From: a virus
IMG/VR virus record: IMGVR_UViG_3300000052_000004
Coordinates: 1-31,449 of that record
DNA: 31,449 bases
Strand: one strand, 5' to 3'
The stretch's first letter is position 1; every line of letters begins with the position of its first letter. The notes under the pieces are model-generated. The model was not told where the DNA came from, made no database searches, and saw nothing but the letters and a program-made list of their open reading frames with translations. The translations under genes were made by a program, and so were the position numbers. This document shows, in pieces, positions 1-31,449 of this stretch.

Positions 1-40
1 AACGGAGGCGAGACTATAAACTTTGGAGACGATCCGATTT
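1..40. repeat. terminal direct repeat, copy 1 (identical to 31410-31449)
   Basis: AACGGAGGCGAGACTATAAACTTTGGAGACGATCCGATTT occurs at both ends of the window, compared base by base. Confidence 0.95.
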
Positions 41-2197: not shown

Positions 2198-4585
2198 ATG
2201 AATGTAACTATTTACAAAAAAGCTACTGACGTCTCCAATGGGTTTACCAAAGACGTTTTCTTTTGTCTTGAAAGAATAAAGCAAGGCAAGAGTAAAGAAA
2301 TGGTTGAGCAACTTCGGTTGATGCCAAAAGAGGAATACGACAAAAGCAAATCAAAACTTCCTGGTGTTTGTTTTAACGGTGTTTTTGAATATCGTTCGCT
2401 GACAGGAATCAAAGAGCATTCGGGATTGATTATTTTGGATTTTGATAAATTCAATTCGAATCATGATGCTATCAATTTCCGCGACTCGATTTCCGATGAC
2501 GAGTTTATTTTTGCGACTTGGATTTCGCCAAGCGGTAAAGGAGTAAAAGCTTTAGTTAAAATACCAGCATCAATTGAGAATCACAAAGAGTATTTTAAAG
2601 CTCTTAAAAATTACTTTAATCATTCTAATTGGGATGACTCGGGGAGTGATGTGAGTCGATTTTGTTTTGAGTCTTACGATCCCGATTTATATTTGAATAA
2701 AGAGTCAAAACTTTGGGACACAATTGAGGCACCCGATTTGGCTGACGTAGGAAGTTATGAGGTTTCAATAGCAGTTAAGTCGGACAATATCATTATTAAT
2801 AACCTGCTAAAATGGTTCGATAAGAAATTCCCTTTATCAAATGGGAATAGGAATAACAACGTCTATAAATTGGCCGCAGCTTTCAACGATTTTGGAATCA
2901 ATAGGTCAGTTGCAGAACAAACCTTGTTCCAATTTGAAAGCCAAGATTTTGACCGCAAAGAGATTGCCACTATTTTAAATTCAGCCTATAAAAAGTCGGC
3001 TAATTTTGGAACTAAATTTTTTGAAGATTTAACCGTAAAAGAGAAAATTGAGAAGCAAATTCGAAGCGGTAAAAATCGCAAAGAGGTAATCGAGTCCAAT
3101 TCTGAATTTGATAAAAAAGACGTTGAAAAATGCATCGATGAAATAAAGGAAGAAATAAGCGTCTCTGACTTTTGGGAATACAATGACAAGGGGCGCATAT
3201 CTTTAAAGCCGCACAAGTTTAAATTTTGGCTACAACAAAACAATTTTTATAAGTACTTCCCGACTAACACCAGTACGTTTACATTCATAAAAATTGAGCA
3301 AAATTTGGTTGAGGAGACAAGTGAAAAACGCATCAAAGATTTTGTTTTAAATAGTTTGCTATCTCGAGACGATATAGGATTTACTCCTTACGACTTTATG
3401 GCATCGTCAAATAAATACTTCCAAAGTGATTTCCTTGCTTTGCTCGAATCAACGGAAGTAAATATAAAAGAGGACACGCAAGAGGAGTGCTTTTTATACT
3501 TTAACAACTGCGTTGTGCGAGTGACTGACACCGATATATCAAAAATCGATTATATTGACTTAGATGGCTTTGTTTGGAAGCGTCAAATCATAAACCGAGA
3601 GTATATTGAAAGCGACCACCATAGCTCGACGTTTAGAAAATTCCTTTGGCTAATTGCTGGGCAAGATGCTGAGAAATATAACTCATTCAAATCGGTAATT
3701 GGTTACCTATTGCATTCGTTTAAAACCTCAGCAAACAACAAAGCGATTATTTTTAACGATGAGACTATCTCGGAAAATCCAAATGGAGGAAGCGGAAAGG
3801 GTTTATTTTGGAACGCACTCGCTCAAATGAAAAAAGTAAGCTCGATTGATGGTAAAACTTTTGAATTTACAAAGTCATTTCCATACCAAACCGTATCAAC
3901 CGACACGCAAATACTTGTATTTGATGACGTGAAAAAGAACTTTAATTTTGAGAGCTTATTTTCTTTGATTACTGAAGGCATTACACTTGAATACAAAGGT
4001 CAAGACGCTATTAAATTGCCTGTTACAAAGAGCCCAAAAATACTAATTACAACCAATTACACCGTTGGAGGTGTTGGAGGATCATTTGAGCGTCGAAAGT
4101 TTGAGGTTGAAATGAGCGACTATTTTAGTTTTAAGCACACTCCAGTAGATGAGTTTGGGCATTTATTGTTTGACGATTGGGATGCTGAGGAGTGGTTGAA
4201 ATTTGATAACTTTATGATTACTTGCGTTCAATTTTACTTGCAAAATGGATTGACTAAGCACGACTTTAAAAACTTAGAAGTTCGCAAGTTTATCAAAAAC
4301 ACTTGCTTTGAGTTTTACGAATGGAGTAGGCCCGATCAAGACGGAAAAAATGAAAATATCGAGTTCAACGTTCGTTGCAATAAGCAAAGTTACTACGACA
4401 ATTTTGTAAATGAATATCCTGATTTTAGAACGTACAAGCTATCTCAAAAACGTTTCTCACAATGGATTGAGCATTATTGCAAATTTTATGATTATAAATA
4501 CTTAACAGGCAAATCAAATGGAGACCGTTGGTTTGAAATTGTAAACGAAAATTCTAAAACTAAAGACGATGAATTATACTTTTAA
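2198..4585 (+). CDS. DNA primase-helicase (BT4734/VirE_N-like primase domain + P-loop NTPase)
   Basis: 795 aa. PGVCFNGVFEYR..GLIILDFDKF..ATWISPSGKGVKALVKIP fits the BT4734/VirE N-terminal primase-like domain. Walker A is NPNGGSGKGLF and the Walker B-like motif is ILVFDDV. Confidence 0.75.
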   Translation: MNVTIYKKATDVSNGFTKDVFFCLERIKQGKSKEMVEQLRLMPKEEYDKSKSKLPGVCFNGVFEYRSLTGIKEHSGLIILDFDKFNSNHDAINFRDSISDDEFIFATWISPSGKGVKALVKIPASIENHKEYFKALKNYFNHSNWDDSGSDVSRFCFESYDPDLYLNKESKLWDTIEAPDLADVGSYEVSIAVKSDNIIINNLLKWFDKKFPLSNGNRNNNVYKLAAAFNDFGINRSVAEQTLFQFESQDFDRKEIATILNSAYKKSANFGTKFFEDLTVKEKIEKQIRSGKNRKEVIESNSEFDKKDVEKCIDEIKEEISVSDFWEYNDKGRISLKPHKFKFWLQQNNFYKYFPTNTSTFTFIKIEQNLVEETSEKRIKDFVLNSLLSRDDIGFTPYDFMASSNKYFQSDFLALLESTEVNIKEDTQEECFLYFNNCVVRVTDTDISKIDYIDLDGFVWKRQIINREYIESDHHSSTFRKFLWLIAGQDAEKYNSFKSVIGYLLHSFKTSANNKAIIFNDETISENPNGGSGKGLFWNALAQMKKVSSIDGKTFEFTKSFPYQTVSTDTQILVFDDVKKNFNFESLFSLITEGITLEYKGQDAIKLPVTKSPKILITTNYTVGGVGGSFERRKFEVEMSDYFSFKHTPVDEFGHLLFDDWDAEEWLKFDNFMITCVQFYLQNGLTKHDFKNLEVRKFIKNTCFEFYEWSRPDQDGKNENIEFNVRCNKQSYYDNFVNEYPDFRTYKLSQKRFSQWIEHYCKFYDYKYLTGKSNGDRWFEIVNENSKTKDDELYF

Positions 4586-5042: not shown

Positions 5043-6277
5043 TGGAACTACGACACTACCAAACTAAAATCTCAGCTGAGGCGGTTGAGATTTTACGAAA
5101 TAAACACATCGTGTATTTGGCGATGGAGGTGCGAACAGGCAAGAGTTTGACCGCACTCAATACGGCCCAATTGTACGGAGCTAAGCGAGTCTTGTTTTTA
5201 ACAAAAAAGAAAGCGATTTCATCAATACAATGGGACTACGATAACTTCGGATTTACGTTTGATTTATCCATCATTAACGATGAATCAATGCACTTAGTGA
5301 CGGGAAATTTCGACTTAATTATACATGACGAACACCATCGCTTCGGTGCCTTTCCTAAACCCAACGCAACGGCTAAGGAGTTTAAAAAACGTTTCAGTAA
5401 ACTGCCTATGATATTCCTAAGCGGTACGCCAACGCCCGAGAGTTACTCGCAATGGTACCACCAGTTTTGGGTAAGTGATTACTCGCCTTATAAAAACTAT
5501 GCGAATTTTTATAAGTGGGCCGCTGAGTACGTCGACATAAAAGAAAAACGCTTAGGCTATGCGGTTGTAAAAGACTACTCAAACGCAAAAGAGAATCTCG
5601 TACGAAGATCCACACGGCCGTATATTATAACTTTCACACAAAAAGAGGCAGGCTTTACGACCAGTGTCAACGAGATGGTACTGGAGTGCGAGATGCAGCC
5701 AATCACTTATGAGGTCATTCGCAGACTTAAGAAGGACTTGATTGTTCGCAACGGACAAGGACAAATAATTTTAGGGGATACAGGCGTTAAGTTGATGCAA
5801 AAAGTGCACCAACTGTCAAGCGGCACTTGTAAGTTTGAGGACGGTACGTCTAAAGTGATTGACGACTCAAAGGCCAGGTTTATCAAGGAGAAGTTTAAAG
5901 GCGAAAAAATCGCAATCTTTTATAAATTCAAGGCCGAATGGGATGCGCTGCTGCAAGTATTTGGAGCCGATTACTTGACAAATTCAGTTGAGGAGTTTGA
6001 TGCAACCGATAAAAATATCGCGCTTCAGATAGTATCGGGCAGGGAAGGGGTGTCTTTAAAAAATGCAAAGTATCTTGTTTACTATAACATCGATTTTAGC
6101 GCAACGAGTTACTGGCAAAGCCGTGATCGCATGACCACAATGCAGCGACAAGAGAACGAGGTCTTTTGGATATTCTCAAAAGGCGGCATCGAATACGATA
6201 TTTATAAGACCGTGCAACAAAAAAAAGATTATACACTAAAAATATTTAAACAAAATGAACGTACTATCTCTATTTGA
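5042..6277 (+). CDS. superfamily II DEAD/DEAH-type (SNF2-like) helicase
   Basis: Motif I is MEVRTGKS, motif II IHDEHHR and motif III LSGTP. The C-terminal QIVSGREGVSL and QSRDR match motifs V/VI. Confidence 0.8.
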   Translation: MELRHYQTKISAEAVEILRNKHIVYLAMEVRTGKSLTALNTAQLYGAKRVLFLTKKKAISSIQWDYDNFGFTFDLSIINDESMHLVTGNFDLIIHDEHHRFGAFPKPNATAKEFKKRFSKLPMIFLSGTPTPESYSQWYHQFWVSDYSPYKNYANFYKWAAEYVDIKEKRLGYAVVKDYSNAKENLVRRSTRPYIITFTQKEAGFTTSVNEMVLECEMQPITYEVIRRLKKDLIVRNGQGQIILGDTGVKLMQKVHQLSSGTCKFEDGTSKVIDDSKARFIKEKFKGEKIAIFYKFKAEWDALLQVFGADYLTNSVEEFDATDKNIALQIVSGREGVSLKNAKYLVYYNIDFSATSYWQSRDRMTTMQRQENEVFWIFSKGGIEYDIYKTVQQKKDYTLKIFKQNERTISI

Positions 6278-7430
6278 TGGGATGTCTTGCGGTCAGCAAG
6301 CTCTCGAAAGAACAGGAATAAAAGTCGATAACTACTACGCAAGTGAGATTGACAAATACGCCATTCAAGTGACAATGGCAAACTATCCAAATACAATTCA
6401 ACTCGGAAGCGTTGTCGATGTGAATGGGTACGACTTACCAAATATTGATTTATTAATTGGCGGATCGCCTTGTCAGTCGTTCTCATTTGCTGGCAAGCGC
6501 AAAGGAATGAGTACAAAAGACGAGCAGGAAATTTTAACGCTTGAGCATTACTTACAATTAAAATCCGAAGGCTATGAGTTTGAAGGCCAATCGTATTTAT
6601 TTTGGGAATATATGCGATTGATTTACGAGGTAAAGCCTAAATACTTTTTACTTGAGAATGTAATGATGGGGGAGAAGTGGGAGAAAGTTTTAAGCAAAGC
6701 GATTGGAGTTACTCCGATTATGATTAATAGTTCACTTGTCTCAGCTCAGAATCGCAAGCGATTATATTGGACAAATATCGGAATGGAATCCGCTGGGTTA
6801 TTTGGTTACCCAGTCAGTATAATTGAGCAGCCAAAAGACAAAGGCATATTGCTTAAAGATATACTCGAAAGCGAAGTTGATGAAAAGTATTTTTTGAGTG
6901 ATGAAAGAATTAATACTATTAAAAAAAGCGAAAGGTGCGTTGATTTTTTATCATATGAATCAAGAAAACATAATTGTTTAATTGCTGGATATTCTAAAAT
7001 TCCTACCGATGGACAGTACATCGTTCATAATACTATGCCTCGCTCATCAACAACAGGTAAAGGAGGAACAGGCCCGCTTAGTCGAACTGATGGTAAGACT
7101 TATTGCTTCGATACTGGTAGTACTAATGCGATTGAGGTTAGACAAGTAAAACAATTAAATACATCCTTAGAAAGTGGAGGAGTTCAGCCGTATCAACAAA
7201 ATAGAGTTTATGACTCAAATGGTATAATGACCGCTTTAGATTTAGATAGTTCAAGAAAATCAGTTTATGTAGATTCACAAATTCGTAGGCTTACACCGAT
7301 TGAATGCGAGCGATTGCAAACAGTTAATGATAACTATACAAATTATGTGAGTGATTCGCAACGGTATCGAATGCTGGGTAACGGATGGACTGTTGATGTA
7401 ATTGCTCACATATTTGGTTATTTAAAATAA
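6255..7430 (+). CDS. DNA (cytosine-5)-methyltransferase
   Basis: Motif I is LSLFDGMSCG, IV GGSPCQSFSFAGKR, VI LLENV and VIII QNRKRLYW. Motifs IX/X are RRLTPIECERLQ and MLGNGWTVDVIAHIF. A variable region of about 170 aa lies between VIII and IX. Confidence 0.95.
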   Translation: MNVLSLFDGMSCGQQALERTGIKVDNYYASEIDKYAIQVTMANYPNTIQLGSVVDVNGYDLPNIDLLIGGSPCQSFSFAGKRKGMSTKDEQEILTLEHYLQLKSEGYEFEGQSYLFWEYMRLIYEVKPKYFLLENVMMGEKWEKVLSKAIGVTPIMINSSLVSAQNRKRLYWTNIGMESAGLFGYPVSIIEQPKDKGILLKDILESEVDEKYFLSDERINTIKKSERCVDFLSYESRKHNCLIAGYSKIPTDGQYIVHNTMPRSSTTGKGGTGPLSRTDGKTYCFDTGSTNAIEVRQVKQLNTSLESGGVQPYQQNRVYDSNGIMTALDLDSSRKSVYVDSQIRRLTPIECERLQTVNDNYTNYVSDSQRYRMLGNGWTVDVIAHIFGYLK

Positions 7431-7443
7431 ATTTGTATATTTG
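7413..7443 (+). promoter_or_regulatory. Bacteroidetes-type promoter candidate
   Basis: TTTG (7413-7416), then N19, then TATATTTG (7436-7443). This matches the TTTG / TAnnTTTG consensus with spacing inside the 19-21 range. Confidence 0.35.
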
Positions 7444-7526
7444 ACCACCGCCAAGAGAAAACACACAACTAACAACACCCTTCTTTTGCACTTGGCGGTC
7501 AATTGAGGGGTGTTTGTTTTTTATAT
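7441..7526 (+). terminator. structured RNA with interleaved stems ending in a T-run terminator
   Basis: Stem A pairs TTGACC(acc)GCCAAG (7441-7455) with CTTGGCGGTCAA (7491-7502). Stem B pairs AACAACACCC (7471-7480) with GGGGTGTTTGTT (7507-7518) with a 1-nt bulge, followed by T6. Confidence 0.45.
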
Positions 7527-7552
7527 AAGCAAATTTATTTGATTATTCACTT

Positions 7553-7735
7553 ATGATAGAACTAACAACAATAGGAAATACAAAAATACTAATAGACATT
7601 AAAGATATTAGAGCGGTTCTTGAATCTAATAATGAAACTTCAATATTTATTTATTCAGATAATAAAGAAAAAATACCTGTAAAAGAAGATTACAACACAG
7701 TAAGAAAAATGATTGAAGATTATTATAATAGATAA
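7553..7735 (+). CDS. hypothetical protein (60 aa, very AT-rich)
   Basis: ORF track entry. My hand count gives about 22% G+C. No motif recognised. Confidence 0.5.
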   Translation: MIELTTIGNTKILIDIKDIRAVLESNNETSIFIYSDNKEKIPVKEDYNTVRKMIEDYYNR

Positions 7736-7738
7736 CCA

Positions 7739-7993
7739 ATGACCGAGCAGCAAATACAAACGAAGATTAAACGCAAACTAATTGAGCGGGGTTGGTATGT
7801 CACGAAATTGATTAAGACATCAACCAACGGCATTCCCGACCTACTGGCAATCAAATACGGCAAGGCGATGTTTATAGAAGTAAAACGCGAAGGCGGGAAG
7901 CTATCGCCTATTCAAGAGCTGCGCATTGAGGAACTAAAAGCCGCAGGAGCGATTGTAAAGATTTGGACTGACTTTGATACTGATTTTAACTAA
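7739..7993 (+). CDS. VRR-NUC domain nuclease
   Basis: GIPDLLAIKYGKAMFIEVKREGGKLSPIQ..L..AG matches the VRR-NUC pattern (PD...E-x-K followed by LS..Q). Confidence 0.8.
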   Translation: MTEQQIQTKIKRKLIERGWYVTKLIKTSTNGIPDLLAIKYGKAMFIEVKREGGKLSPIQELRIEELKAAGAIVKIWTDFDTDFN

Positions 7994-8008
7994 AAATGCA
8001 TTGACTAT

Positions 8009-8218
8009 ATGACACCAAAAGAGAAGTTAATATTTGAACTTGATAAAATACTTAATCAAATACCAAAAAACTTTGATTTTATTGATTATGTTTTTGTTTG
8101 TTCTAAATCTTTTGAATGTAAAATAATAGCTTATAAAGGAATACAAATATACTTTGATGGCAGAATAAAAGAAAATACTATTTATTACATGGAAAACCCA
8201 TATTTTGATTTTAAATAA
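8009..8218 (+). CDS. hypothetical protein (69 aa, AT-rich)
   Basis: ORF track entry. No motif recognised. Confidence 0.5.
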   Translation: MTPKEKLIFELDKILNQIPKNFDFIDYVFVCSKSFECKIIAYKGIQIYFDGRIKENTIYYMENPYFDFK

Positions 8219-8219
8219 T

Positions 8220-8432
8220 ATGACACCAAAACACTACGACAACCAGCAGCAATACGACGTCATCGACATCATTAAGGACTACGACCTCAACTTTAACGAG
8301 GGAAATGCAGTCAAGTATATCGTAAGGGCAAGACGCAAAGGCGCACACCTTGACGATCTACGCAAAGCAATGCACTACCTTGACCGCGAAATAATACACC
8401 ACGAAACGAAACTAAAATTTAAAAATAAATAA
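8220..8432 (+). CDS. DUF3310-like phage protein
   Basis: MTPKHYDN...DVIDII..Y.LNFNEGNAVKYIVRA.RKG...DL.KA.HYL fits the DUF3310 signature. ATG 8220 lies directly after the upstream stop at 8216-8218. The track start of 8205 is the alternative. Confidence 0.7.
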   Translation: MTPKHYDNQQQYDVIDIIKDYDLNFNEGNAVKYIVRARRKGAHLDDLRKAMHYLDREIIHHETKLKFKNK

Positions 8433-8436
8433 GATT

Positions 8437-8622
8437 ATGATGCAAGGATTAAAAATAATTAATAGAAAATTTGATATTAATTGGGAAAAAGTAGAAACAT
8501 TTGATGATATAAAAATTCTTTTAAAAGCACTTCAAATGCAAGTTTATTTAAATTCAGAAACAATACCAGAACATTTAAAAGAATGTTTTGAAAAAGATTT
8601 ACTTATAGAACAAAACATTTAA
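8437..8622 (+). CDS. hypothetical protein (61 aa, AT-rich)
   Basis: ORF track entry. No motif recognised. Confidence 0.5.
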   Translation: MMQGLKIINRKFDINWEKVETFDDIKILLKALQMQVYLNSETIPEHLKECFEKDLLIEQNI

Positions 8623-8633
8623 AAACGAATAAT

Positions 8634-8873
8634 ATGAAAGAAACAGCAGTAAAATTTTTAGTTTGGAAACTAAATAATATAAAAAGCACATCAACTGACC
8701 AATATAGTAAAATAACATTTTTGGAAAAAGAATTTATTAAATTACTTGATCAGGCAATAGAAATGGAAAAACAGCAGATAATACAATCAAATAGAGATGG
8801 TGTTGATATGATTATAAATGAAAAACATTTTATTTCAGGAGAAAAATACTACAACGAAACATTCAAACAATGA
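8634..8873 (+). CDS. hypothetical protein (79 aa, AT-rich)
   Basis: ORF track entry. Its stop overlaps the next start (ATGA). Confidence 0.5.
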   Translation: MKETAVKFLVWKLNNIKSTSTDQYSKITFLEKEFIKLLDQAIEMEKQQIIQSNRDGVDMIINEKHFISGEKYYNETFKQ

Positions 8874-9061
8874 GAGCAGGCTCTAAAATGTATAAAGGTC
8901 TTGAGGTGCCAATCAACGCACCGATCCACATCAATAAGCAAGGGCGTGAGTTTTATATAAGTGGACTTTGTTACAATACCGCATTTTGCCGTTATATAGA
9001 TACAGGAGAAATAATTGAGATAAAAAGTAGTTTGGTATCGAAATATTTAGTAGGTTTGTAG
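8870..9061 (+). CDS. hypothetical protein (63 aa)
   Basis: ORF track entry. The start could instead be the internal Met at 8888. Confidence 0.45.
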   Translation: MRAGSKMYKGLEVPINAPIHINKQGREFYISGLCYNTAFCRYIDTGEIIEIKSSLVSKYLVGL

Positions 9062-9065
9062 CGAT

Positions 9066-9299
9066 ATGGTAAAACCGCACACTATAAGTACACAAATGTG
9101 GCTTGAACAAGAGGACGATGATCTTGGAATGGGTGGAAGCTTTGTCGAGTTTCGGGTAATGGTTGACGCAATCAACGGCTACTGGGTTGAGAACGAAAGC
9201 GAAATTTGTATCGTAGTGCAAGGGACAGTCTACTATGTCGAAAATAACGAGGCCTTGCTGCTCTTTTTATCGGAGTACTTTAACCCTATGCGGTTATGA
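9066..9299 (+). CDS. hypothetical protein (77 aa)
   Basis: ORF track entry, with an ATGA overlap onto the next gene. Confidence 0.5.
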   Translation: MVKPHTISTQMWLEQEDDDLGMGGSFVEFRVMVDAINGYWVENESEICIVVQGTVYYVENNEALLLFLSEYFNPMRL

Positions 9300-9724
9300 T
9301 ACTGGCAGAGTTAGCCAAAAAGGATGCCCAATGGCGAAAGATGGCTTTCCAAATATGCAAAGACAAGGATTTGGCTGACGAGTTAGTACAAGAAATGTAT
9401 CTTAAATTGTATCAAAATACCAATCTAATAAAAGAAGGGTATATTTATACAGTATTAAGAAACCTATTCTATGACTATACTAAAAGTCAAAAGGATATAA
9501 TAATCGACTTTAGTAATATAGAGATTGAGGACACTGAATACATCGAGCCAGTGGATTACTTTCAACTTATGAAAGGGTTAACTTGGTATGAGCGCACAAT
9601 GTTTGAGCTTTCAACTTTGGTAGGTCAGCGTGAACTCAGCCGACAAACAGGCATACACTTACAAACTATCCATCGAGTTAATAAGATGGTCAAATCTAAA
9701 ATAAATGGCAAAAAGAAGAACTAA
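9296..9724 (+). CDS. ECF-like sigma-70 family RNA polymerase sigma factor
   Basis: Region 2-like segments are DLADELVQEMYLKLYQ and YIYTVLRNLFYDYTKSQK. The region 4-like HTH is LTWYERTMFELSTLVGQRELSRQTGIHLQTIHRVNKMVKSKI. Confidence 0.7.
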   Translation: MILAELAKKDAQWRKMAFQICKDKDLADELVQEMYLKLYQNTNLIKEGYIYTVLRNLFYDYTKSQKDIIIDFSNIEIEDTEYIEPVDYFQLMKGLTWYERTMFELSTLVGQRELSRQTGIHLQTIHRVNKMVKSKINGKKKN

Positions 9725-10079: not shown

Positions 10080-10284
10080 CCAATTCGGTCTATTGTGTGA
10101 ATTTTTAGACAAATTAATCGACAACAAACCCGAAGACGTTACTCACAACGAGCTTTGGCTATCTCACAACCTGTATGATATTTTAAAACTCAAGGAATAC
10201 CGCGATTTTAAGATACAAACCGACGAAAATATACCAGTTAACCAAGTAATCATAGGACAATGGCTTACTCCCAGCAACAAATAG
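10069..10284 (+). CDS. hypothetical protein (71 aa)
   Basis: ORF track entry. It overlaps both neighbours. Confidence 0.45.
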   Translation: MEDNQFGLLCEFLDKLIDNKPEDVTHNELWLSHNLYDILKLKEYRDFKIQTDENIPVNQVIIGQWLTPSNK

Positions 10285-10670
10285 ACGACACTTTCGACGA
10301 AATCTTAAGAGAAATAGAGCAAGGAAACTCACTTATCTCGATTTTAAGACGTAAAGAGTTCCCAAGTACTGCTACATTTTATCAGTGGTTGGAAGCAGAC
10401 GAAGACAAAGCAAAAAGATACGTGCGCGCGTGCGAAATCCGAGCTGACGTTATCTTTGAGGACATCATCGACATTGCTGATCACTCCGACGAAGACCATA
10501 CACCCTTTACTGGAGCGAATGTAGTGCAACGTGACCGCTTAAAAATCGACGCTCGCAAATGGATCGTTGCAAAATTGCACCCTAAAAAATACTCCGATAG
10601 AGTATATCAAGACATCACAACGCACCAAGAGCAACCACTATTTCCAGATGTAATTACCGATATTAAATAA
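10260..10670 (+). CDS. terS: terminase small subunit
   Basis: SLISILRRKEFPSTATFYQWL..D...AKRYVRACEIRADVIFEDIIDIAD......VQRDRLKIDARKWIVAKLHPKKYSDR matches the widespread HTH-type small terminase family (..RLrIDaRKW..sKL.PKKYGD.). It lies directly upstream of terL. Confidence 0.75.
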   Translation: MAYSQQQIDDTFDEILREIEQGNSLISILRRKEFPSTATFYQWLEADEDKAKRYVRACEIRADVIFEDIIDIADHSDEDHTPFTGANVVQRDRLKIDARKWIVAKLHPKKYSDRVYQDITTHQEQPLFPDVITDIK

Positions 10671-10676
10671 GAGCTT

Positions 10677-11883
10677 ATGTTTATAAGAACTACAGTAATA
10701 AATAAGGTTCTCCAATTAACCAAATTCACAAAGGGCGTGCAAGGTGGCACGTCCGCTCTATAGTCCCTCTTTATTAAATTAAAGGGGGACAAAAATAGTA
10801 GGAAAAACATTCGGAATCCTTCCAATACTTATTGACTTATGCTGCAAGACCGAACTCCTCGAGATTTCGGTTGTAGCGGAGTCGATACCACACCTCAAAA
10901 GAGGGGCAATAAAAGACTTCAAAAAAATAATGGTGTTAACAGGTCGATGGAATCCACAAAGATGGAACGCGACCGACTTTAAATACACCTTTGCGAACAA
11001 CTCAGCAATCGAATTTTTTAGCGCAGAGAACGACTCAAAACTTAGAGGTGCGCGTCGTGATTATTTGTACATGAACGAGGCCAATAACATGACCTTCCAC
11101 GCTTACACCGAACTCGCCTCACGTACAAAAAAAGGCGTTTATTTGGATTGGAATCCAGTCAATGAGTTTTGGTTTCACACCGATTTAATGAACGACCACG
11201 ACGTCGATTTCTTAATTGTAAACTACGAAGACAACGAGGCTTGCCCCGAATCAGCGCTAAATTTTATTCTCAAAGCAAAAGAGAAAGCCAAGACATCAAC
11301 TTTTTGGGCAAACTGGTATAACGTTTACGGCTTAGGTCAACTCGGCTCACTTGAGGGCGTTGTGTTCCCTAATTGGGAACAAATAGATACAATCCCAGCA
11401 GAGGCAAAATTCTTAGGTTGTGGCCTCGATTTTGGCTACTCAAACGATCCATCGGCTTTGATTGGAGTATACGAGTACAACGGCAAAATAATTGCAGACG
11501 AATTGATTTATTCGACCTCACTTTTGAACTCGGACATCATTCGATTAATGAAACAAGACAAACGCCTTCCGATTTGGGCCGACTCAGCCGAGCCGAAATC
11601 AATTGAGGAGATACGCCGAGCGGGTTTTAACATCAAACCAGTTGTAAAAGGTGCCGACTCAATCAATTTCGGTATATCGGTATTGCAGGAACGTAACTTA
11701 TTAGTTACTAAGCAAAGCACCAACCTAATAAAAGAGCTGCGAAATTACTCTTGGGATACCGACAAAACAGGAAAGCGACTAAATGTCCCAATCGGAGAAT
11801 ACAATCACGCCATCGATGCGATGCGCTACTTTGCAATGATGGGCCTTTCGATAAGAAAATCGCGTAAAGTTATCATAACGTAG
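10677..11883 (+). CDS. terL: terminase large subunit, reading frame interrupted inside Walker A (functional product needs a join such as 10677..10760 + 10801..11883)
   Basis: ATG 10677 gives MFIRTTVINKVLQLTKFTKGVQGGTSAL, then UAG at 10761. The +1 frame, open from 10783, reads GKTFGILPILIDLCCK..ISVVAESIPHLKRGAIKDF and runs into track ORF 10930..11883. That ORF has a Walker B-like RRDYLYMNEA and nuclease-type GLDFGYSNDPSA and NHAIDAMRY. An intact G-x4-GKT exists only after joining. Confidence 0.8.
10761..10800 (+). other. non-coding gap inside terL: UAG stop plus 11-bp hairpin (candidate translational bypass element)
   Basis: Stops occur in all three frames (UAG 10761, UAA 10775, UAA 10780). 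The hairpin pairs 10763-10773 with 10780-10790 around a 6-nt loop. AUAGU is repeated at 10760-10764 and 10795-10799. Confidence 0.6.
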
Positions 11884-31148: not shown

Positions 31149-31449
31149 ATGGGAGCAAACGCAAAACTATTCCTGGAAAATTCAGAACAACTAATCACGA
31201 TGTACGAGCCATCGTTCACAAAAAAAGACGCAATCCTTACTGGCAAGCGCATGGTCGACAACGTACTCGAAGAGGGCAACGTTGACAAGCACATGTTTAT
31301 GGCGAACATTTGCCGACTTAAAGAGGTCGTTAATTCAGCCGACGCCGAAATGCGTAAGCACTTGCCCGAAGAGAAAATGACTTGCTACGGCGTCGAGTTC
31401 ACACCAGTAAACGGAGGCGAGACTATAAACTTTGGAGACGATCCGATTT
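31149..31449 (+). CDS. 5' part of the junction-spanning hypothetical protein (continues at base 41)
   Basis: ATG 31149 is open to the end of the window, and the last 40 nt repeat bases 1-40 in frame. Confidence 0.6.
   Translation, partial: MGANAKLFLENSEQLITMYEPSFTKKDAILTGKRMVDNVLEEGNVDKHMFMANICRLKEVVNSADAEMRKHLPEEKMTCYGVEFTPVNGGETINFGDDPI
31410..31449. repeat. terminal direct repeat, copy 2
   Basis: Identical to bases 1-40. Confidence 0.95.

Follow-up and report, generated by a model that had tools for sequence, protein, structure and literature searches.

How might a phage make its packaging ATPase from a large terminase gene that is closed in all three reading frames inside the Walker A motif? 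This question is raised by IMG/VR virus record IMGVR_UViG_3300000052_000004, positions 1 to 31,449, which we analysed over its whole length of 31,449 nucleotides (nt) and refer to as the window. In this genome, terL, the gene for the large terminase subunit, is split between the Ala and Gly codons of the phosphate-binding loop (P-loop; GGTSA/GKT) by 43 nt that contain an in-frame stop codon and a hairpin. We consider it likely that these 43 nt are a programmed translational bypass cassette, over which ribosomes would hop to produce native TerL, a reading that draws on comparative evidence: the anatomy of the gap, its recurrence, purifying selection on the flanking coding sequence, covariation in the RNA structures, and a link to homing endonuclease genes. 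The initial annotation of this DNA had suggested a hop like that of T4 gene 60, reportedly a 50-nt translational bypass linked to a MobA homing endonuclease cassette, or some other removal of the 43 nt. The suggestion now has strong comparative support from a family of 31 gap variants with a covarying hairpin, matched flanking codons and adjoining endonucleases.

The split gene and its upstream neighbor comprise the following parts, in window coordinates:

10260-10670, plus strand: terS, encoding the small terminase subunit, which ends 6 nt before the terL ATG (Pfam Sf6_terminase, E = 6.5e-35)
10677-10757, plus strand: 5' coding part of terL, MFIRTTVINKVLQLTKFTKGVQGGTSA (27 codons), which aligns colinearly with the N-terminus of homologues that lack the gap
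10758-10800, plus strand: coding gap of 43 nt, consisting of CUA UAG, the hairpin, an A-rich spacer and GUA; absent from about 50 colinear relatives and found in 8 other contigs
10761-10763, plus strand: in-frame UAG stop, its G being the first stem base of the gap hairpin (from the sequence and from covariation)
10801-11883, plus strand: 3' coding part of terL, 360 codons, beginning GKTFGIL..., before the stop at 11881-11883, and comprising the remainder of the ATPase domain and the nuclease domain (Pfam Terminase_3C, E = 7.7e-13)

The 28-codon open reading frame (ORF) that begins at ATG 10677, MFIRTTVINKVLQLTKFTKGVQGGTSAL, is terminated by TAG 10761-10763. The +1 frame, after TAA 10780-10782, stays open to the stop at 11881-11883, with GKTFGIL... 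from 10801 and no ATG, GTG or TTG before 10930, and the third frame is closed by TAA 10775-10777, so that all three frames are shut within the gap. The nearest cultured relatives are FpV9-group Flavobacterium psychrophilum phages, whose TerL is unbroken (..VVPGGTSAGKTFGIIPILID..); because the FpV9 TerL is colinear, the 28-codon ORF is the true TerL N-terminus, and the extra DNA amounts to exactly 43 nt. The initial annotation had placed the terS end, the 28-codon frame, the stops in all frames and an AUAGU repeat (10760-10764 and 10795-10799) correctly, and the halves that it joined into a Walker A on a terminase N-terminus are colinear with the FpV9 protein. Its statement that neither half alone has a P-loop does not hold, given that RGTKIVGKT, encoded in the downstream frame from 10783, contains G-x4-GKT in its own right (G at 10786), though without a start codon.

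Split genes in metagenomic assemblies are usually errors, and this general prior is all that favors attributing the gap to sequencing, assembly, or a chance small insertion in one genome. A protein-guided scan of IMG/VR yielded 80 loci. Some 50 relatives, at 70-98% amino-acid identity, were, like the FpV9 group, colinear across the P-loop without the 43 nt, the outcome of the homologue alignment that had been suggested as a check. The same 43 nt occupied the same place in seven contigs from different samples and in an eighth, L218, that was found by a later pattern scan. Only two sites within the cassette vary among them, namely CUA/UUA (both Leu) before the UAG, and one loop base in L218. In 100 shuffles, a 28-nt match to the hairpin never arose by chance. 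With these eight other contigs and thirty further variants at the site, the error explanation is refuted, and we give it a negligible probability. The first and last 40 nt of the window (1-40 and 31410-31449) are identical; this terminal repeat marks the assembly, about 31.4 kb long, as complete and circular (or else circularly permuted).

The extent of the family emerged from a pattern scan, including one metagenome scan, that allowed any 25-55 nt between degenerate codons for Q-G-G-T-S-A and for G-K-T-F/Y-G. A first, looser degenerate DNA pattern had produced at least 120 matches, mostly due to chance, and matches were filtered by context. The resulting 67 locus rows represent 31 distinct gap sequences at no fewer than 42 non-redundant loci in about 50 samples. 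Gaps of 36, 37, 38, 39, 41, 42, 43 and 44 nt were seen, and since these lengths cover residues 0, 1 and 2 modulo 3, with stops inside the gaps, no single frameshift or readthrough rule can repair them, whereas exact removal of the gap restores GGTSAGKT in all variants. In every gap, the take-off codon is followed at about 5 nt by a C-rich arm, which a loop connects to a G-rich arm; an A/U-rich spacer then leads to the resume codon. Several simpler accounts were rejected. If TAG were reassigned, readthrough would remain out of frame with GKT and meet TGA at 10833; no tRNA genes were found in the window, which rules out a suppressor or frameshift tRNA encoded there; and a dispersed miniature inverted-repeat transposable element was discarded, given that the window holds no further copy of the cassette. 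Scans with a CAA pattern gave 2 matches in metagenomes and 0 in genomes, such that this form of the cassette occurs in no bacterial genome or prophage scanned, and tblastn against 50,697 phage records of the GenBank collection detected no cultured carrier. In one carrier (L142, 4105-5214), an in-gap ATG opens a continuous ORF, MKLVVGDDNAGKTF..., which gene callers would annotate as a plausible-looking, N-terminally truncated TerL, missing the split.

Do the interrupted genes encode functional protein? Among contigs carrying the window's 43-nt cassette type (type-A carriers), synonymous divergence (dS) over the 360 downstream codons was 0.24-0.72 (0.03 for the near-identical L019 and L020), with a ratio of nonsynonymous to synonymous divergence (dN/dS) of 0.007-0.075, and the changes in the 28 upstream codons were nearly all synonymous. 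In the 34 carriers for which the contig extends to the 3' end, 358-371 codons of the downstream frame are uninterrupted and neither terL half has a further lesion; a 5' ORF of 26-31 codons with an ATG start is found in every carrier. Pfam and PHROGs scans of the window's larger ORFs, which matched portal, protease, tail proteins, primase, helicase and methylase, revealed no second terminase, and the alternative source of terminase ATPase for which the initial annotation had allowed was thus not found among these ORFs. We also weighed the possibility that the cassette-bearing terL is non-functional and that the carriers are defective or selfish genomes, rescued by cassette-free co-infecting relatives and spread by homing alone. 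Carriers and non-carriers do share sample series and recombine, the endonuclease link described below shows selfish spread, and the cassette is present in no isolate. Nevertheless, the lack of lesions in either half of 34 complete carriers, the low dN/dS at dS up to 0.72, the diversification of 31 variants across about 50 samples, and the preservation of the hairpin and of a 5' stem-loop by compensatory changes, unexpected for a dead gene, make this scenario very improbable. By these comparative criteria, the split terL is neither an artefact nor a pseudogene, in line with the proposal of the initial annotation: it recurs in independent assemblies, in 31 gap variants, with both halves under purifying selection.

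Two RNA structures flank the point at which coding sequence is interrupted:

10733-10754, plus strand: 5' stem-loop, GGGCGUGC/GCACGUCC, 8 bp, directly before the proposed take-off codon (from folding and carrier comparison)
10763-10790, plus strand: gap hairpin, GUCCCUCUUUA/UAAAGGGGGAC, 11 bp (10763-10773 with 10780-10790), one G-U pair, 6-nt loop UUAAAU (from folding and covariation)

The gap hairpin, with the stem, the G-U pair, the loop and the start at the G of UAG exactly as first described, lies within a segment (10755-10803) that folds at -17.9 kcal/mol (z = -4.2), as stable as none of 200 shuffles. A homologous C-rich/G-rich hairpin, at -15 to -24 kcal/mol, is present in 31/31 gap variants. 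Within the 42-nt class (16 distinct members), 98.6% of the cells of a 9-bp stem are paired, compared to 52-70% in slid-partner controls, and three of the nine pairs show compensatory double changes (G:C/U:A/A:U, C:G/U:A and A:U/C:G/G:C), the first of which includes the last base of the stop codon; altogether, 22 cells show double changes vs 0 in every slid control. The 5' stem-loop is similarly characteristic of carriers. For the 35 nt that end at the Ala codon, the mean folding energy is -8.8 kcal/mol over 26 distinct carrier sequences and -2.1 kcal/mol over 27 distinct cassette-free ones (Mann-Whitney p = 9e-8), and the fold of 10715-10830 as a whole reaches -34.9 kcal/mol (z = -4.8). In the window, this 5' helix is made of codon choices, GGC GUG ... 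ACG UCC, that cassette-free relatives do not use, and other carriers retain it by compensatory synonymous changes (GGGUGUGC/GCACAUCC and AGGCGUGC/GCACGUCU); the helix explains part of an invariant tract of about 90 nt in the type-A carriers. Both structures of the gene 60 type, a stem-loop at the 5' end of the gap and a separate upstream 5' stem-loop, are therefore present.

A covarying hairpin that juxtaposes both junctions is also what a processing substrate would look like, and sequence cannot separate a hop from a splice: the gap could be excised from the mRNA, by hairpin cleavage and re-ligation or as a mini-intron, and a continuous terL translated in the ordinary way. Self-splicing introns are all far larger than 36-44 nt. 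No Rfam family, group I and II introns included, matched 10400-11100 or the rest of the window, and the Pfam and PHROGs scans of the window's larger ORFs revealed neither an RNA ligase nor a splicing endonuclease. We accordingly view mRNA excision as unlikely, although it is the least improbable of the alternatives. A self-splicing intron or an intein was rejected outright, considering the size of the gap, the stops in it, the lack of an Rfam match, and the lack of a Hint domain.

Under a translational bypass, the gap should be bounded by codons that the same peptidyl-tRNA could read, and the family points to the following pair in the window:

10755-10757, plus strand: GCU (Ala), proposed for take-off and the final native codon ahead of the gap (family rule)
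10798-10800, plus strand: proposed landing codon GUA (family rule), where most relatives have GCA

The flanking codons are matched in 31/31 distinct gaps: GCN to GCN in 21, GCN to GUA or GUU in 6, and GGN to GGA in 4. The 27 Ala-type gaps are preceded by GCU or GCC and end in GCA, GCU or GCG (21), GUA (5, the window's type included) or GUU (1), and in the four Gly-type gaps the cassette lies one codon further 3', after GGG, GGA or GGU, with coding resuming after GGA. The distance from the take-off codon to the stem is 5-6 nt in the Ala and Gly groups alike. From this family-wide rule we infer, for the window, take-off at GCU 10755-10757, landing at GUA 10798-10800, a displacement of 43 nt and a native protein; GUA could conceivably be read by a tRNA-Ala with anticodon UGC if the middle position formed a G-U pair. 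The nascent chain at take-off would consist of 27 residues in all and is basic. The 40-nt displacements put forward in the initial annotation (CUA to GUA, ACG to ACA, GGC to GGG) are not favored by this rule: each would add a residue to the P-loop, and none has a counterpart in the 42-nt class, where CUU or AUU lacks a matching in-frame triplet. Take-off at CUA would place the stop adjacent in the window, at the cost of leaving the 42-nt class without a matched landing codon. Two repeats were also considered and set aside, the AUAGU direct repeat, whose 35-nt spacing fails to restore the frame, and a GGGCAAU repeat in L083, which as a 28-nt hop is unlikely and would put three residues into the P-loop.

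The landing side also bears on whether TerL might be made in two pieces, a 28-residue peptide and a C-terminal protein with the P-loop RGTKIVGKT, started at a non-canonical codon within the gap and assembled non-covalently with the peptide. The downstream frame does contain G-x4-GKT from 10786, the G-rich arm precedes AUA 10795 and GUA 10798 by 5-11 nt, and the in-gap AUG of L142 opens MKLVVGDDNAGKT. Against this stand the lack of a usual start codon before 10930 in the window, the UAA that follows the in-gap AUG or GUG two codons later in most 42-nt variants, and, in several variants (L238, L248, L264 and L243), a stop in the landing frame directly before the landing codon, due to which the downstream frame cannot be entered from further upstream. 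Furthermore, the phage makes little use of Shine-Dalgarno (SD) sequences, and an N-terminal ORF translated for itself would have no need of colinearity through GGTSA. We judge assembly from two pieces to be improbable, about as much so as mRNA excision or slightly more.

The G-rich arm had been read as an SD-like element. GGGGGA (10784-10789) ends 8 nt before GUA, and in L083, of the Gly group, GGGGG lies 6 nt before GGA; however, SD-like motifs precede only 2 of 29 window genes, and because the phage hardly uses such sequences, an SD role of this arm is doubtful. In the 42-nt class, for example in L234, L225 and L247, the C-rich arm encodes Pro-Pro (CCC CCU) in frame 0, after the take-off region (A-L/F-Y-P-P-M-N-stop), and in these variants a Pro-Pro stall could replace the missing adjacent stop.

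Several observations weigh against a bypass. The order in the window is GCU CUA UAG, so that the stop is one sense codon past the proposed take-off and not adjacent to it as in T4 gene 60. Across the 31 variants, the codon at the stop position is UAG in 12, UAA in 5, UAU in 10 and another sense codon in 4, leaving 14 without a stop there, most of which have an in-frame UAA within the loop. The initially described adjacency of take-off codon and UAG has to be revised accordingly. The window's GCU/GUA pair is only near-cognate; the codon matches could have arisen simply through the duplication behind the element, without selection for landing; and, with so few SD-like motifs, one stimulator of gene 60 may lack a counterpart here. 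The purifying-selection signal may come in part from cassette-free ancestors via recombination, the carriers being mosaic, and all carriers are uncultured metagenomic contigs. Finally, that one polypeptide spans the gap is an inference from sequence.

Taking these points together with the comparative evidence, we still favor programmed bypassing, which would proceed as follows. Ribosomes would translate the 27 N-terminal terL codons, whereupon peptidyl-tRNA-Ala would detach from GCU 10755-10757, with help from the UAG, from the hairpin beginning 6 nt further on, and from the 5' stem-loop as it re-forms behind the ribosome. The mRNA would then slide 43 nt through the ribosome until the tRNA re-pairs at GUA 10798-10800, and decoding would resume at GGA 10801 to give one 387-residue TerL with the native Walker A motif GGTSAGKT.

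Where, then, does the cassette come from? An endonuclease gene lies directly upstream in 16 of 41 de-duplicated carriers (13 HNH and 3 GIY-YIG), compared to 1 of the 50 cassette-free loci found through terL (Fisher p = 2e-5, leaving out two carrier loci that were fetched with an endonuclease query). The HNH endonucleases located between terS and terL in L142 (3471-4019), L214, L222 and others match HNH_3, NUMOD4 and NUMOD1 above the Pfam cut-offs. In L060, a type-A carrier, a 161-residue ORF (2553-3038) between terS and terL matches phrog_314 'homing endonuclease' (E = 5e-7) and, by profile comparison, a GIY-YIG protein in the PDB (E = 1e-4), with only sub-threshold Pfam matches; the best structural matches of its AlphaFold model (predicted local distance difference test score, pLDDT, 79) are all GIY-YIG domains plus the I-TevI DNA-binding domain. 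A 68%-identical GIY-YIG copy precedes a divergent terL with a 37-nt gap in L083 and L084.

The organization of these loci indicates what moves. In L214, L222, L251, L256 and L258, an older terL 5' copy that ends at Q-G-G of the P-loop is stranded upstream of the HNH gene, from which it follows that three parts make up the element: the endonuclease gene, 27 fresh codons for the terL 5' end, and the gap. Within the gap, the 3' half reads RGTKIV before GKT in the window (10783-10809) and VVGGDNAGKT in the 42-nt class, both resembling the native IQGGTSAGKT; this half may be a degenerate copy of P-loop codons, a suggestive likeness only, and, on the 5' side, Q-G-G is already present in the stranded copies. 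Two contigs with the same gap, L251 with the HNH gene and L230 without it, differ by a 630-nt block bounded by two N-terminal copies, so recombination between these repeats can delete the endonuclease and leave the cassette. Carriers are non-monophyletic on the terL backbone: the carrier L018 differs by 2.1% from the cassette-free L003 and by 5.2% from its nearest fellow carrier. Around terL, the difference between L018 and L003 is mainly a patch of about 170 nt that runs from the terS 3' end, where there is a 29-nt indel, through the 28 N-terminal codons and the cassette into the next four codons. A second divergent patch, at about 1100-1500 of L018, some 1.8 kb upstream of terL, has 87 differences in one 100-nt bin and represents another recombination mosaic in contigs that are otherwise about 98-99% identical.

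No endonuclease gene lies beside terL in the window, which does have an additional segment at this place:

10648-10676, plus strand: 29 nt at the terS/terL junction of carriers, lacking in cassette-free relatives, in which terS overlaps the terL start (alignment A1)

The break point GATGTA and a AATAAGAGCTTATG-like motif in this segment are common to the window and L060, where the GIY-YIG gene follows. The 29 nt are probably the scar of a lost endonuclease gene, a suggestive link that would put the window in a post-deletion state. Endonuclease gene and gap are not obligatorily linked, given that L085-L089 (GIY-YIG) and L039 (HNH) have the endonuclease gene next to an uninterrupted terL. In L085-L089, the P-loop Ser codon is AGT (GGA GGA ACA AGT GCG GGT AAG), which may be a cleavage-resistant variant of the target site. 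Upstream of both HNH and GIY-YIG genes we found TTTCGTATATTTG (L083, about 2470-2500; L214, about 9150-9185; L222, on the reverse strand, just upstream of the HNH ATG), which matches the Bacteroidota -7 promoter consensus, TAnnTTTG; such a match suggests that the endonucleases are transcribed from a promoter of their own, and it agrees with a Bacteroidota host.

On this evidence, the cassette would have arrived as the 3' end of a mobile element that inserts among the P-loop codons and brings a homing endonuclease gene and a substitute terL 5' end along with the gap. If T4 mobA/gene 60 is a guide, the endonuclease target is probably also destroyed by the gap, which would possibly protect the carrier from cleavage. 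The window's lineage would later have lost the endonuclease gene by deletion and retained the cassette. The idea, raised in the initial annotation, that the gap serves as a control point for late packaging finds no support; the endonuclease link points instead to a selfish mobile cassette.

Elsewhere in the window, an ORF at 9296-9724, shortly upstream of the packaging module, matches Sigma-70 region 2 (E = 1.9e-6) and may encode a sigma factor with which the phage transcribes its late genes. At 6255-7430 lies a gene for a C-5 cytosine DNA methylase (E = 9e-45), and the following segment of about 1.9 kb (7431-9295) has no plus-strand ORF of 90 amino acids or more in a genome that is otherwise tightly packed.

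The closest parallel is T4 gene 60. Both gaps measure about 40-50 nt and break an essential, conserved ORF soon after its start (codon 27 here, codon 46 in T4). In both, the stop lies at the 5' edge of a stem-loop with a separate stem-loop upstream, and matched take-off and landing codons restore, or here would restore, the native protein. The resemblance extends to the T4 mobA/gene 60 element: the endonuclease gene is immediately upstream, the element supplies its own N-terminal coding segment, the endonuclease is often lost with the cassette kept, and insertions recur at one site with more than one endonuclease family. MobA in T4 gene 39/60 has the same layout of endonuclease gene, new N-terminal coding segment and gap, and in a survey of gene 60 and MobA, homologues were found only in topoisomerase genes of T4-like phages (Manning & Atkins, 10.1101/2022.08.31.505936). 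The differences are nonetheless substantial. The terL gap affects Walker A, not the TOPRIM region of a topoisomerase, in phages of about 31-34 kb related to Bacteroidota phages, as opposed to T4-like myoviruses of Proteobacteria; the proposed take-off is at Ala or Gly, one sense codon before a stop that 14 of 31 variants lack there; the helix is of the C5/G5 type in place of a UUCG-capped stem; SD use is minimal; and the terL hop is proposed from sequence. We saw no sign of homology to T4 gene 60 or MobA, the sequences not having been directly compared, and gene, host phylum and endonucleases all differ.

Yeast mitochondria, those of Magnusiomyces capitatus, reportedly harbor comparable byp elements. 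Like the terL gaps, byp inserts (27-55 nt) form hairpins in conserved coding sequence, have matched take-off and landing codons, vary in presence between relatives, and are thought to be mobile (10.1101/2022.08.31.505936, and general knowledge of these elements). They differ in being mitochondrial and numbering dozens per genome over many genes, in contrast to the single site in a single gene seen here, in that their A-site codon is an unassigned sense codon and not a stop, and in having no link to homing endonucleases. In Streptomyces phage Hau3, a bypass was proposed for a 10-nt insert in the terminase gene, with 7 nt in related prophages (Smith 2013; PMC10732093), which is likewise a frame-disrupting insert in a phage large terminase gene whose flanks are colinear with uninterrupted homologues. 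Unlike the hop considered here, that of Hau3 is triggered by a rare UUA without its tRNA and was proposed to act as a growth-stage sensor (PMC10732093), and its inserts occur at other positions of the protein, without a long hairpin gap or an adjoining endonuclease. A mycobacteriophage tape-measure case (PMC4351075) is unrelated. With free-standing homing endonucleases (Seg/Mob, I-TevI-like GIY-YIG and I-HmuI-like HNH), the terL-associated enzymes share domain architectures (GIY-YIG with a helix-turn-helix; NUMOD4, HNH_3 and NUMOD1), a location between terS and terL, a patchy occurrence, and co-conversion over about 170 nt; however, those enzymes leave neighboring ORFs intact, as in L085-L089 and L039, whereas the element described here splits the P-loop and brings a 5' end together with a non-coding gap. 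In a literature search on bypassing together with terminases, gene 60, metagenomes and homing endonucleases, we found no terL P-loop gap described.

These comparisons suggest that the logic of gene 60 and MobA arose independently in another essential gene, phage group and host group, with a different take-off geometry. With somewhat less confidence than we place in the bypass itself, we think it likely that the gaps of 36-44 nt in the terL Walker A motif of uncultured relatives of Bacteroidota phages are a second, evolutionarily independent bypass family, spread by HNH and GIY-YIG elements and using a variant mechanism, with Ala or Gly take-off at which the stop is non-adjacent, a C5/G5 hairpin and little SD involvement. 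For decades, efficient long-gap bypassing in bacterial viruses has had one example, T4 gene 60. Annotation pipelines need to be aware of such gaps, because gene callers will label these terL genes truncated or missing. If the reading is correct, the 31 natural variants, covering all three frames, with and without an adjacent stop and in two take-off classes, would form a comparative set for the signals that bypassing needs, and, as the closest cultured relatives infect Bacteroidota, with little SD pairing, they would allow a direct test of the role of SD sequences in landing. It would also mean that the combination of an endonuclease with a bypass gap arose more than once, letting selfish elements invade essential genes.

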